From an uncultured Clostridia bacterium (lineage in GTDB: Bacteria; Bacillota; Clostridia; TANB77; CAG-508), in the NCBI GenBank assembly GCA_934149075.1, contig CAKPDR010000001.1, forward strand, positions 84,060-148,059: DNA of 64,000 bases. Direction: 5' to 3'. Below, in pieces: positions 677 through 49,415 of the stretch. Positions within the stretch are counted from its first letter, which is position 1. Each line of letters opens with the position of its first letter. The notes beneath the pieces are model-generated. The model did not search any database. It was given only the letters and a program-made list of their open reading frames with translations, and was not told the origin of the DNA. The position numbers and the translations under genes were made by a program.

Positions 677-759
677 GCCCGAATGGCGGAACTGGCAGAC
701 GCACACGACTCAAAATCGTGCGGGAAACCATGTGGGTTCGAGTCCCACTTTGGGCACCA
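677..759 (+). tRNA. tRNA-Leu (anticodon CAA), class II with a long variable arm and encoded CCA
   Basis: Hand-folded cloverleaf. Acceptor GCCCGAA/TTTGGGC. Anticodon stem CACGA/TCGTG with loop CTCAAAA. T arm GTGGG-TTCGAGT-CCCAC. Ends in ACCA. Confidence 0.9.
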
Positions 760-4926: not shown

Positions 4927-5003
<77 letters not shown>

Positions 5004-31285: not shown

Positions 31286-31449
31286 TTACCAGTAGGGACA
31301 CCCATAAATGGTAAATTTTTTTACCACTAGGGACACCCTTTGTAATATTGGGGTTAACATCTTTTTTATAATGGTGTCCCTTCTGGTAATTTTTTTTACC
31401 AAAAATGAGTGTCCCCACTGGTAAAAATTCTTACCAACGGGGACACCCT
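31286..31449. repeat. REP-like cluster A: 5 units (2 forward, 2 reverse, 1 forward)
   Basis: Units at 31286-31314, 31321-31345, 31370-31389(rev), 31396-31424(rev) and 31431-31448. Each is TTACCA-NNN-GGGACAC(C/T)C.., with or without the closing TGGTAA arm. Confidence 0.9.
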
Positions 31450-43215: not shown

Positions 43216-43273
43216 TTACCAGTGGGGACACCCATTAATGGTAAAAATTTTTACCACTGGGGACACCCATTAC
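43216..43273 (+). repeat. REP-like cluster B: 2 forward units directly 3' of the RAYT-like gene and 12 nt upstream of the UDG start
   Basis: TTACCAGTGGGGACACCCATTAATGGTAA (43216-43244) and TTACCACTGGGGACACCCATTAC (43251-43273). Confidence 0.9.
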
Positions 43274-43288
43274 ATAAATAACTAGTTA

Positions 43289-44051
43289 TTATTCCATCTT
43301 TTTTAAAATTTTTGTAATCTTTGGTCTGTTTATGTTCAAAATTTCTGATAATTTTCTTGCAGAAATATTCGAATTTTTTTTTAGTTCTTTGATAACCTCT
43401 TTAAGATACTCTTCATTATTATTCAACATTTCTATAGAAATGTTTTCGTTATGCAAATATTCGCTAATAACTTCAGCAAAGTTAATCTCTTCGTCAATAT
43501 CATTTATATCAACAATCTTTTTATTTAAATGTTGTTTAAGAAAGACTTCTAAATATTCATCTACACCATAAATCAATTTTGCACATTGTGAATCAATTAT
43601 CTCTTTCTTTCCTAGCCATTCACTATAACTTGAATATTCATAATCCCCTGCATTTTGCACTATTCCGGGCTTTTACAGGGTTATTATGTATATAAACTAA
43701 ACAATTATATAATTGTTCTTTTGACAAAATTGGCTGAGTAAAATATCTATTTCTAAATACTACTCCAACTCTTTTATTTATATAATTATAATGCATTGCA
43801 AAATTTGTGTTGACCATTTGCATAACCTTTGTAACTTCATACGGTTCTATAGTATGAAATAATACATGAGCATGATTTCCCATTATACAATATGAAAGTA
43901 TCTTTGCATTACTTTCTTCTATGTATTTTTTTAAAAGATTTTTGTATTTTTTCTTTAGTTCATCTGTCCTGAAAATAAATTCCTTGTTTATTCCCTGGGA
44001 CATTACATGAAGATATTCTGTCTTCATATCTTTTCTTGCTTTTCGGGGCAT
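43289..44051 (-). pseudogene. HUH/Y1 transposase of the IS200/RAYT type with a C-terminal HTH extension, split by a 1-nt frameshift
   Basis: HUH is GNHAHVL and the catalytic Tyr context is LVYIHNNPVKA. ORF1 stops at 43638. In the other frame the sequence continues GIVQNAGDYEYSSYSEW... to an HTH-like ISARKLSEILNINRPKITKIL. The shift maps to the GCCCGG run at about 43665-43670. The likely start is MPRKARK after AGGAGGAG. Confidence 0.75.
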
Positions 44052-44249
44052 AAGGTCTCCTCCTTTTTTATATTTTATTGCCCCCATCACTCTATTTTAT
44101 AGTTTTATCATATTTTCAAAATTTTGTAAACATAATTCTTGTTTTTTATTAATTTTTTTATTATAAGATAACGATTTATTTTAAATTAATACAAAGAAAG
44201 CTCAATCTTATACTGAGCTTTTTATAGATTATTATAATTTATTTTATTC

Positions 44250-44305
44250 AAAGGTTGTCCCTTGTGGTAAAAATTTTTACCATTAATGAGTGTCCCCAAT
44301 GGTAA
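44250..44305 (-). repeat. REP-like cluster C: 2 reverse units
   Basis: AAAGGTTGTCCCTTGTGGTAA (44250-44270) and TTACCATTAATGAGTGTCCCCAATGGTAA (44277-44305). Confidence 0.9.
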
Positions 44306-45077
44306 AAATTCTTAATGCATTTTCATATGTAATTTTCGCAATTTCATCTATTGGCATTTCCTTAAAATTCGCAATTTTTTGAGCAATGAATTTCACATTT
44401 TTCGAATCATTTCTCTTTCCTCTATTAGGTTCTGGAGACAAATATGGACTATCTGTTTCAATTAAAATTCTATCTAGTGGAACCAATTTTACAATATCTG
44501 ACGCATTTTTTGAATTCTTGAAAGTTACAGGACCTGCAAATGATATATAATATCCTAATTCAAGAGCCTGTTTTATCATCTCTTGATTAAATTGACAGCA
44601 GTGGAAGATTCCTGCCTTTTTCACTGTATGTTCTTTTATAACGTTTATCGTATCAACTGAAGCATCCCTAGAGTGTATCACTATTGGTAAGTTTAATTCA
44701 TTTGCTAAATCTATCTGTTTTATAAACGCTTCTGTTTGTAACTCTTTATTTTCCTTGTTCCAATAATAATCTAGACCAATTTCCCCTATTGCAACTAATT
44801 TATTTGTTTTGTTTTCTTTTATAATTTTAGTTATTTTCTCTATATCTTTCCACAGTTCTTGATCAGATTGTGGAATATCATTAGGCGAAATACCACAAAT
44901 TGAATAAATAAATTCATATTTTTGAGATAATTCTATAGCTTTTTGTGATGACTCTATATTATAACCAGCACATACAAATTTTGTTATTCCAGCTTCATAC
45001 GTTTCTTTTATTATTTGTTCTCTATCTTTATCAAATTTTTCGTCATTATAATGTGAATGCGTATCAAAAAGTTCCAT
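44283..45077 (-). CDS. tatD: TatD-family metal-dependent DNase/hydrolase
   Basis: MELFDTHSHY.., ..GEIGLDY.., ..IHSRDA.., ..ETDSPYL. The last 8 codons and the stop lie inside REP unit C2. Confidence 0.9.
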   Translation of the reverse strand: MELFDTHSHYNDEKFDKDREQIIKETYEAGITKFVCAGYNIESSQKAIELSQKYEFIYSICGISPNDIPQSDQELWKDIEKITKIIKENKTNKLVAIGEIGLDYYWNKENKELQTEAFIKQIDLANELNLPIVIHSRDASVDTINVIKEHTVKKAGIFHCCQFNQEMIKQALELGYYISFAGPVTFKNSKNASDIVKLVPLDRILIETDSPYLSPEPNRGKRNDSKNVKFIAQKIANFKEMPIDEIAKITYENALRIFTIGDTH

Positions 45078-45135: not shown

Positions 45136-45226
45136 AAAGGGTGTCCCCAATGGTAAATTTTTTTACCATTAATGGGTGTCCCCCGTGGTAAACTTTTTTA
45201 CCATTAATGAGTGTCCCTAATGGTAA
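45136..45226 (-). repeat. REP-like cluster D: 3 reverse units
   Basis: 45136-45156, 45163-45191 and 45198-45226 (AAAGGGTGTCCCCAATGGTAA, TTACCATTAATGGGTGTCCCCCGTGGTAA, TTACCATTAATGAGTGTCCCTAATGGTAA). Confidence 0.9.
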
Positions 45227-49287: not shown

Positions 49288-49415
49288 TTACCAGTAGGGA
49301 CACCCATCTTTGGTAAAAAATGTTACCAGAAGGGACACCCTTCATCGCCAAAATGTTGTAAATGGTGTCCCCGGTGGTAAAAAATTTTACCACTAATGAG
49401 TGTCCCCAGTGGTAA
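49288..49415. repeat. REP-like cluster E: 2 forward plus 2 reverse units forming a 128-bp composite palindromic element
   Basis: 49288-49316, 49323-49340, 49360-49380(rev) and 49387-49415(rev). Confidence 0.9.

Follow-up and report, generated by a model that had tools for sequence, protein, structure and literature searches.

The question raised by this locus is whether a broken transposase gene and the short hairpin repeats on both sides of it belong to one genetic system. The locus lies in a 64,000-nucleotide (nt) stretch of DNA from an uncultured Clostridia bacterium (contig CAKPDR010000001.1, positions 84,060 to 148,059), referred to here as the window; coordinates without a contig label are positions in it. 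The gene encodes a Y1 HUH transposase with a C-terminal helix-turn-helix (HTH), a relative of the enzymes that are associated with repetitive extragenic palindromes (REPs) and are called REP-associated tyrosine transposases (RAYTs). To our knowledge, the biology of REPs and RAYTs has been worked out almost wholly in Proteobacteria. We read the locus as a decayed REPtron/TIRtron, in which a vertically inherited, single-copy Y1-HTH gene of the TIRYT type is bracketed by inverted repeat doublets that spread through intergenic DNA, and we give this reading a probability of roughly three in four. It is carried by the anatomy of the locus, the family assignment of the protein, single-copy synteny, the co-variation of enzyme and repeat, the extragenic bias of the units and the pseudogenisation of the gene, each observed here.

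The gene and the repeat units next to it are the following.

43289..44051, minus strand: Y1 HUH (RAYT/TIRYT-like) pseudogene; the repaired product has 253 amino acids (aa).
43216..43244, plus strand: outer long unit, C-type, TTACCAGTGGGGACACCCATTAATGGTAA, on the 3' side of the Y1 gene, abutting the ribosome-binding site of the downstream UDG gene.
43251..43268(73), plus strand: inner short unit TTACCACTGGGGACACCC(ATTAC), on the 3' side; the Y1 stop codon (43289-43291) is 20 nt away.
44253..44270, minus strand: inner short unit GGTTGTCCCTTGTGGTAA, on the 5' side, with one mismatch (GGGACAA); the distance to the Y1 start codon downstream is about 200 nt.
44277..44305, minus strand: outer long unit, T-type, TTACCATTAATGAGTGTCCCCAATGGTAA, on the 5' side, overlapping the final 23 nt of tatD.

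These are the four flanking units of the initial annotation, two forward units on the 3' side and two reverse units on the 5' side, and all four are recovered. The gene therefore stands between inverted palindromic units that are also dispersed outside genes, which is the arrangement that characterises a REPtron.

The motif used to count the units is TTACCANNNGGGACAC (TTACCA-N3-GGGACAC), with at most one mismatch, in a window with a GC content of 26.6%. The recount gives the same 16 copies in 5 clusters that were first reported (31286-31448, 43216-43268, 44253-44305, 45139-45226 and 49288-49415). The chance expectation from dinucleotide-preserving shuffles is 0.33 +/- 0.57 copies, and 17 copies are reached in none of 100 shuffles. 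A seventeenth match, with two mismatches, is found inside tatD at 44675 and is probably due to chance. The units occur in two forms. The long unit has 29 nt and the consensus TTACCA-gTa-GGGACAC-c/t-CAT-nAa-TGGTAA, an imperfect hairpin whose ends pair as TTACCA/TGGTAA; for the copy at 43216..43244, the predicted hairpin in single-stranded DNA (ssDNA) has a free energy of -8.6 kcal/mol. The short unit, TTACCA-N3-GGGACACCC-tT, is without the 3' half of the long unit. Between long and short units there is a spacer of 6 nt of A/T, and the resulting period is 35 bp. Apart from the arms around the Y1 gene, the window contains three clusters.

31286..31448, both orientations: REPIN-like element made up of long (+), short (+), a 33-bp core, short (-) and long (-), with one additional short (+) unit.
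45139..45226, minus strand: tandem array short-long-long with the 35-bp period; its outermost unit forms the acpS C-terminus ...TIRDTH and the stop codon.
49288..49415, both orientations: REPIN-like element made up of long (+), short (+), a 22-bp core, short (-) and long (-).

REPINs (REP doublets forming hairpins) consist of two inverted units with a short spacer that fold into one long hairpin. This form is found at 31286-31424 and at 49288-49415. In the computed folds, each is a single long ssDNA hairpin (-30.4 kcal/mol, z = -5.2, and -31.1 kcal/mol, z = -7.0, respectively).

The initial annotation held that the two ends of an element can be told apart by a C/T variant. This is the case for all three inverted pairs in the window (left ...ACACCCAT, right ...ACACTCAT) and for several short-core elements, but it does not hold throughout: the two arms of many inverted pairs in related contigs have the identical C/T variant. 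The variants are subfamilies, with 64 C-type and 41 T-type units among 105 long units. A consistent left/right polarity of C-type and T-type was rejected, as it is unrelated to the core sequences and absent in symmetric elements. A CRISPR array, considered in view of the 35-bp period, was also rejected: the spacers are 6 nt of A/T, there are 2-4 units per array and both orientations occur. In an Rfam scan of the window, no family matches the repeat units. The sole Rfam matches are two tRNA genes, at 677-756 (+) and 4930-5003 (-).

The Y1 protein is read from two minus-strand open reading frames (ORFs), 43638..44090 and 43289..43660, which overlap in different frames and carry the motifs GNHAHVL and YIHNNPVKA. 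When one C is removed from GCCCGG (43665-43670), they join into the 253-aa protein, which contains ...NPVKAGIVQNAGDYEYSSY... and ...YIHNNPVKAGIVQNAGDYEYSSY.... The repaired protein has a Y1_Tnp core, an HUH motif formed by H60 and H62, the catalytic tyrosine Y120, a YSSY serine motif and a winged HTH at about residues 210-253. Its alignment with 27 intact homologues, each about 250 aa long, covers the full length. All 28 invariant residues of this family are kept, H60, H62, Y120 and S140 included. In the serine motif DYEYSSY, just past the catalytic tyrosine, Y137 and S140 are invariant across the 28-sequence alignment and Y139 is nearly so. In Pfam, the repaired protein matches Y1_Tnp (E=1.7e-10) and, at its C-terminus, HTH_24 (26.8 bits against a cutoff of 21.9). 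The motifs and coordinates first given for a Y1 HUH gene with a C-terminal HTH are thus confirmed.

The protein is consistently closer to RAYTs than to IS200 transposases. Among NCBIfam models, it scores 66.7 bits with REP_Tyr_transpos and 18.1 bits with IS200, and the former score is higher in 28 of 28 family members. When a family profile is compared with the PDB, the match to 4ER8 (E. coli TnpA_REP) has E=3.4e-5, while the ISDra2 and IS200 TnpA structures (2XM3 and 2F4F) give values of about 0.5. 4ER8 emerges with the family profile; a single-sequence PDB search with the repaired protein returns a weak HTH match only. The AlphaFold2 model of the repaired protein has a mean pLDDT of 85.8, with helices at 191-252. 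Its best Foldseek match in the PDB is again 4ER8 (E=3e-6, TM 0.69 on the target, 140 columns), and ISDra2 and IS608 follow at about 6e-4. Hidden Markov model (HMM), profile and fold are all nearer to TnpA_REP, which, as judged from sequence and a predicted model, makes the protein a RAYT-superfamily enzyme with an added winged HTH and not an IS200 TnpA. The family is large, with about 2,075 representatives at 50% identity and E<1e-30, and JGI annotates one member as 'REP element-mobilizing transposase RayT'. Upstream of the start codon, at a distance of 20-35 nt, a GGGGGCA motif is present in six of seven family genes inspected: in the window (about 44065-44080, minus strand, GATGGGGGCAATAAAAT) and in the related contigs L116, L119 (both genes), L175 and L181. 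This leader motif could be an operator for the protein's own HTH or a leader element.

The position of the gene is the same in every contig read. The neighbourhood spoIIE-...-acpS-tatD-Y1-UDG-gltD-like is common to all 46 contigs read, for both of the alleles described below (22 and 24 contigs). A sister species (L116) has, at the corresponding acpS-tatD-Y1-UDG position, an intact orthologue with 53% identity (P0013). Three further family members (P0116, P0114 and P0065) are each at one housekeeping locus in all contigs read. The window and 357 kb of repeat-bearing contigs contain no second Y1 copy or intact paralogue that might act in trans; the sole other Y1 match there is a 64-aa partial sequence, 72% identical, on a short contig of higher GC content (L171). 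No full-length family member is found in 72,556 plasmids, and 50,697 phage records contain one distant match (27% identity). The Y1 gene is single-copy and vertically inherited; this is the pattern of a RAYT and not of an insertion sequence (IS), by criteria taken from PMC5581495.

These results bear directly on the possibility that the gene is a degenerate autonomous IS of the IS200/IS605 family and that the short repeats are derived from it as miniature inverted-repeat transposable elements (MITEs). The Pfam match is to Y1_Tnp, which is described as 'Transposase IS200 like', and the gene-bearing and short elements have the same ends, as do MITEs and their parent IS. However, the gene occupies one fixed syntenic locus even across species, is not found as identical multiple copies and is absent in full length from plasmids. 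Its ends are inverted rather than distinct left and right ends on one strand, and HMM, profile and fold favour TnpA_REP over IS200, IS608 and ISDra2. The IS200/IS605 explanation is already largely refuted and is highly improbable, and the outcome that the initial annotation had named as contrary to its own proposal, an ordinary IS200 TnpA, is not what is seen.

Two side observations concern the surroundings of family members. In one strain (L180 1-9500, compared with L181), a prophage-like block with a phage lysozyme and an Acb2/Tad1-hairpin protein lies directly upstream of the Y1 homologue P0065; its upstream neighbours in other strains are housekeeping genes and a sequence that, by eye, looks like a tRNA. 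Many of the closest intact homologues (P0001-P0035) are on contigs of about 0.9-1.3 kb that hold little besides the gene. Assemblies that break at the flanking repeats are one possible reason.

The initial annotation left three explanations for the split gene: it may be inactivated, mis-sequenced or recoded. The lesion is a single site.

43665..43670, minus strand: frameshift site, GCCCGG, with one extra C relative to the GCC GGA (Ala-Gly) of all intact homologues.

The repaired frame fits the family consensus NPVKAG[IML]V. Across the gene, GCCCGG included, the window does not differ by a single base from four independent metagenome assemblies (L001-L004), and this argues against a sequencing error. 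In a second allele (L005-L008), a 324-bp deletion removes both the frameshift site and the YIHNNP catalytic tyrosine motif. The C-terminal remnant of this allele is out of frame with its N-terminus, and the deletion therefore arose on an already frameshifted background. Proteins nearly identical to the repaired one come from more than 150 contigs and are all truncated. Among about 15 billion proteins there is no intact close copy, and the best full-length homologue is 56% identical. The extra base is real and inactivating. The Y1 gene is dead in this species, not mis-sequenced, and has decayed stepwise.

Alternatively, the split gene might be phase-variable through slippage in the C run, or recoded by +1 frameshifting at the rare CGG codon, so that full-length enzyme is made at a low level. 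The lesion is a C run expanded by one base, the downstream frame is open for 123 codons and is 99-100% conserved, and Neisseria RAYTs are reported to have short-homopolymer frameshifts, of which some revert (bioRxiv 10.1101/2021.07.10.451892). Against this, an intact allele is absent both from the contigs read and from the protein collection, and three C residues make a very short run for slippage. No slippery motif can be recognised, and in our own estimation the re-pairing of tRNA-Ala from GCC to CCC is impossible. The 324-bp deletion of the catalytic tyrosine on the frameshifted background, with the C-terminus out of frame, has the look of relaxed selection. We regard phase variation or recoding as very unlikely and take the gene to be decayed.

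The repeats change together with the enzyme. Inverted TTTACCATGGGGACGGAGTTAATGGTAAA units, two upstream and one reversed downstream, stand on both sides of the intact orthologue in L116. These share the TTACCA/TGGTAA stem with the units of the window and differ from them in the core (GGGGACGGAG in L116, GGGGACACCC in the window). Further copies of the L116 unit are found in the acpS-tatD spacer and past the gltD-like gene. Enzyme and repeat co-vary between the sister species. More widely, inverted flanks with GGGAC[G/A] are present around seven of seven family genes inspected (window, L116, two in L119, L122, L175 and L181). In five of the seven (window, L116, one in L119, L175 and L181), a 6-10-bp stem carries an apical GGGGAC[G/A], as read by eye rather than from a computed fold. 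The two genes in L119 (2492-3301 and 10001-10774) are paralogous Y1-HTH genes separated by 7.5 kb, with 38% and 47% identity to the query. Their own, differing inverted GGGAC-containing flanks indicate several enzyme/repeat pairs per genome.

Enrichment of the motif extends beyond the window. When a metagenome collection was scanned completely for the long-unit pattern, 49 further stretches emerged. L131, one of these, matches the end of the window at 99.8% identity, and four contigs of its assembly, 648 kb in all and assumed to be from the same or a very close species, contain at least 56 units. In a scan of the GTDB genome collection, multi-copy loci are found in at least three metagenome-assembled genomes of uncultured Clostridia (CAKPGU01, CAKPLT01 and CAOJCG01), and most of the listed matches are single and due to chance. 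The positions of 168 units in 61 clusters are divided as follows.

Intergenic: 141 units.
Last 40 nt or fewer of an ORF: 19 units.
ORF 5' end: 6 units.
ORF interior: 2 units.

The units are thus strongly biased towards intergenic DNA, although long ORFs cover 80% of the sequence. The orientation of solo clusters relative to the flanking genes is 11 against 5, which is not significant. In the window, nearly all long ORFs are on the minus strand.

The units are arranged in 26 solo long+short doublets, in tandem arrays with the 35-bp period and, in related contigs, in about 20 inverted pairs. Inverted pairs form two classes. In the first, a core of 22-35 bp separates arms that differ at 1-4 of 20 positions; this class includes both REPIN-like elements of the window and the arms that flank the Y1 gene. 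The second class is MITE-like, with a conserved, AT-rich core of about 90 bp and nested arms that are mostly exact reverse complements, the variable triplets included. Such exact arms suggest recent palindromic generation or homogenisation. Elements with the AT-rich core are listed by contig and position.

L138 3211-3420; L142 3735-3951; L148 9148-9404; L151 1108-1357; L159 2262-2537.
L164 3678-3889; L166 1853-2064; L172 3793-3999; L126 15-186; L033 2628-2919.

Two contigs from different samples, L161 (411-487) and L164 (3678-3889), differ by a 146-bp indel within a repeat cluster, with flanks that are 99% identical. L161 has a minimal long/long inverted pair; in L164 there is a nested element that contains the AT-rich core. 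Between strains, the clusters thus change in structure. L129 and L142 were considered as an empty and a filled site, and this was rejected: only one flank aligns, a simple fold-back is excluded, and a rearrangement or a chimeric assembly is left. Inverted long+short doublets also enclose other sequences. In L128 (913-1390, the same locus as in L150), they surround a gene for an 85-aa DUF1653 protein (Pfam E=5.5e-24), as they do the Y1 gene. They likewise bracket a 380-aa zinc-ribbon-like ORF in L031.

Where units touch genes, they mostly do so at the 3' end. All 19 units at ORF 3' ends are on the strand of the gene, and about 11 of them encode ...T-x-G/R-D-T-H-stop. Three genes of the window, tatD, acpS and the spoIIE-like gene, end inside long units (44283-44305, 45204-45226 and 49393-49415, minus strand). 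The repeat encodes a tail T-[I/T]-[G/R]-D-T-H, followed by the TAA or TAG of the unit, and the three proteins end in ...TIGDTH (tatD), ...TIRDTH (acpS) and ...TTGDTH (spoIIE-like). At least eight ORFs in related contigs have such tails (...TSRDTH*, ...TNRDTH* and ...TSGDTH*), and the sister-species tatD (L116) ends inside a degenerate unit (...RIFKILPQ*). One further hairpin is found next to tatD.

44197..44221, minus strand: terminator-like hairpin AAAGCTCA...TGAGCTTT with a T-rich tail, between the upstream doublet and the Y1 promoter region.

This hairpin is probably the terminator of tatD, in which case the repeat units would be transcribed at the end of the tatD mRNA.

Such positions might be expected if the units were mainly structural elements selected by the host, such as terminators, attenuators, stabilisers of mRNA 3' ends or protein-binding sites, that are independent of the Y1 gene, with the position of the gene being secondary. 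The units are stable hairpins, the 19 at ORF 3' ends supply stop codons, and 27 of 29 clusters are between co-directional genes, with none in divergent (promoter) spacers. The units are also kept at the same positions in eight strain contigs in spite of the dead enzyme gene. However, the preference for this context is weak, since tandem pairs already make up 84% of spacers. The units are without the T-runs of a terminator and match no Rfam family, and a separate terminator-like hairpin follows tatD. If enzyme and repeat were unlinked, it would be unexpected that the core changes with the Y1 orthologue and that each family gene inspected has its own inverted GGGAC flanks. An origin as host elements is unlikely, and it is not a full rival to the decayed REPtron/TIRtron, as the observations are also compatible with later co-option of the units by the host.

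How a decayed REPtron/TIRtron of this kind may have worked can be outlined by analogy with E. coli TnpA_REP and with the TnpA of IS608 and ISDra2. The intact enzyme would recognise the unit as a hairpin in ssDNA, with the family-wide GGGGAC[A/G] in the apical part of the hairpin. The conserved motif is apical and not at the hairpin foot, so the geometry of recognition may differ from that of E. coli. The HUH/tyrosine site would cut and rejoin ssDNA through a 5'-phosphotyrosine intermediate, and this would multiply the doublets, mostly into intergenic DNA and beside existing units. The HTH may add DNA binding, either to the units or to an operator. In this species the enzyme gene was then lost, first by the +1 frameshift and afterwards, in some strains, by the 324-bp deletion. 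As the gene is dead, the units have most likely become non-autonomous, a remnant in which recombination and decay are the only sources of change.

Several points weigh against this reading. The REP_Tyr_transpos score of 66.7 bits is below the curated NCBIfam equivalog cutoff of 80 bits, and by this sequence measure the repaired protein is a relative of the RAYTs modelled there and not an equivalog. The units are without the GTAG or CGTC that the canonical REPtron has at the hairpin foot and have an apical GGGGAC instead. Around most other family members inspected, the flank repeats reach only 2-4 copies per 20 kb, which makes amplification specific to the lineage of the window and its near relatives. 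Unit density is known per contig only (16 in the 64-kb window and at least 56 in the four contigs of 648 kb). The 146-bp indel could be due to recombination rather than transposition. If it were a recent transposition, it would be awkward to reconcile with a dead enzyme, unless an enzyme acts in trans or the contigs belong to a close relative. The mobilisation of the units by the Y1 enzyme, the geometry of recognition and the role of the HTH are drawn from analogy. The initial annotation took the gene for the present or former mobilising enzyme of the repeat family. This interpretation is supported, and none of the outcomes that it named as contrary was found; the step from association to mobilisation is itself interpretive.

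A stronger version of the decayed REPtron/TIRtron reading is more tentative, and we consider it somewhat less probable than an even chance. It holds that, in this clostridial lineage, a TIRYT-type (subclass 2.1) enzyme founded a true REP/REPIN-like population. Recognition would depart from that in E. coli in three respects: a loop-presented GGGGAC[A/G] in place of a 5' GTAG tag, a long+short doublet with the 35-bp period as the mobile module, and a part of the winged HTH in targeting. The sister species, one with a dead and one with an intact gene, would be a natural experiment. If so, the pair would show what becomes of REPs in a Gram-positive gut anaerobe after the loss of their enzyme. RAYT relatives with an HTH (TIRYT, subclass 2.1 and Group 1) are numerous and are reported with few or no associated repeats, and the locus is a clean Gram-positive case that ties one of them to an abundant hairpin repeat family. 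It combines a natural knock-out of the enzyme with a repeat that co-varies with the enzyme between sister species. The repeats rewrite the final codons of housekeeping genes (tatD, acpS and the spoIIE-like gene) and create short, similar C-terminal tails, which is relevant to the annotation and assembly of gut Clostridia. The unit sequences are concrete substrates, and the intact orthologues are the enzymes, for a first biochemical test of the subclass.

Among known systems, the IS200/IS605 elements (IS608, ISDra2) and their MITE-like derivatives share with this locus the Y1 HUH fold and hairpin-bearing ends. Here, in contrast, there is a single fixed copy with inverted rather than same-strand ends and no tnpB, and similarity to these elements is much weaker than to TnpA_REP. 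The units resemble IS608 in that they begin with TTAC, its target and left cleavage tetranucleotide.

The canonical REPtron is reportedly the subject of Nunvar 2010, Bertels & Rainey 2011, Ton-Hoang 2012 and Messing 2012 (PDB 4ER8). The locus resembles the REPtron/REPIN-RAYT systems (E. coli TnpA_REP/YafM and Pseudomonas Group 2/3) in its single-copy, vertically inherited Y1 gene and inverted hairpin flanks. Extragenic dispersal, inverted doublets that fold as REPINs, co-variation of enzyme and repeat, and 4ER8 as the best structural match are also shared. It differs in that the protein is about 90 residues longer, has an HTH and falls short of the NCBIfam cutoff, and in that the host is a low-GC Firmicute.

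For the decay of the gene, the nearest parallel is the RAYT of N. gonorrhoeae, which is frameshifted species-wide; short-homopolymer frameshifts are common in Neisseria RAYTs (bioRxiv 10.1101/2021.07.10.451892). A species-wide frameshift, a one-base homopolymer change and a repeat population that is still resident are common to both. The RAYT group and the repeat are different, and here there is also a second, larger deletion allele.

The closest described kind, as judged from sequence, is the TIRYT/TIRtron (subclass 2.1, Group 1 RAYT) and not the canonical GTAG-REP RAYT of Proteobacteria; the assignment to subclass 2.1/Group 1 follows from architecture and motif. The TIRYTs are TnpA_REP subclass 2.1 (PMC6006769), and the Group 1 RAYTs of Bertels are probably equivalent. 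In the relevant passages of Di Nocera et al. 2013 (PMC3733652), TIRtrons/TIRYTs are RAYT-like genes with inverted repeats, many of which share GGGGWSAS. Among these terminal inverted repeats there are self-complementary ones, and some belong to families of moderate abundance that occur in dimers or clusters (PMC3733652). The named examples are from Proteobacteria and Acidobacteria, and a word search of the available text of that paper returns no mention of Clostridia or Firmicutes. In the corresponding parts of Quentin et al. 2018 (PMC6006769), subclass 2.1 consists of long proteins with a C-terminal HTH and the serine motif, and REP-like sequences are not found nearby. The HTH matches published there are Bac_DnaA_C, HTH_23 or HTH_28 (PMC6006769). 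The sections of Bertels et al. 2017 that treat Group 1 RAYTs place them in Clostridia, with flanking 16-mers at about 12 copies (PMC5581495). The remark in the initial annotation that this setting is poorly described therefore has to be weakened, as Group 1 RAYTs are already reported in Clostridia and the setting is not wholly undescribed.

The locus resembles the TIRtrons in its Y1 protein, which is long and RAYT-like, ends in an HTH and has a serine motif that follows the catalytic tyrosine. It also has inverted flanks with GGGGWSAS, here GGGGACAC. The units of the window fit this pattern, and those of relatives (GGGGACGG, GGGGACGT and GGGACACA) fit it only partly. Unlike published subclass 2.1 proteins, the protein matches HTH_24. 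Where the passages cited give no repeat nearby (PMC6006769) or 16-mers in about 12 copies (PMC5581495), there is here a clear hairpin repeat with 16 copies per 64 kb. The units are modular, with long+short doublets, the 35-bp period and nested inverted pairs. The novelty is modest and consists of a clear hairpin repeat family in a Firmicute, added to the TIRtron/TIRYT kind; we file the element as a member of that kind that works like a REPtron.

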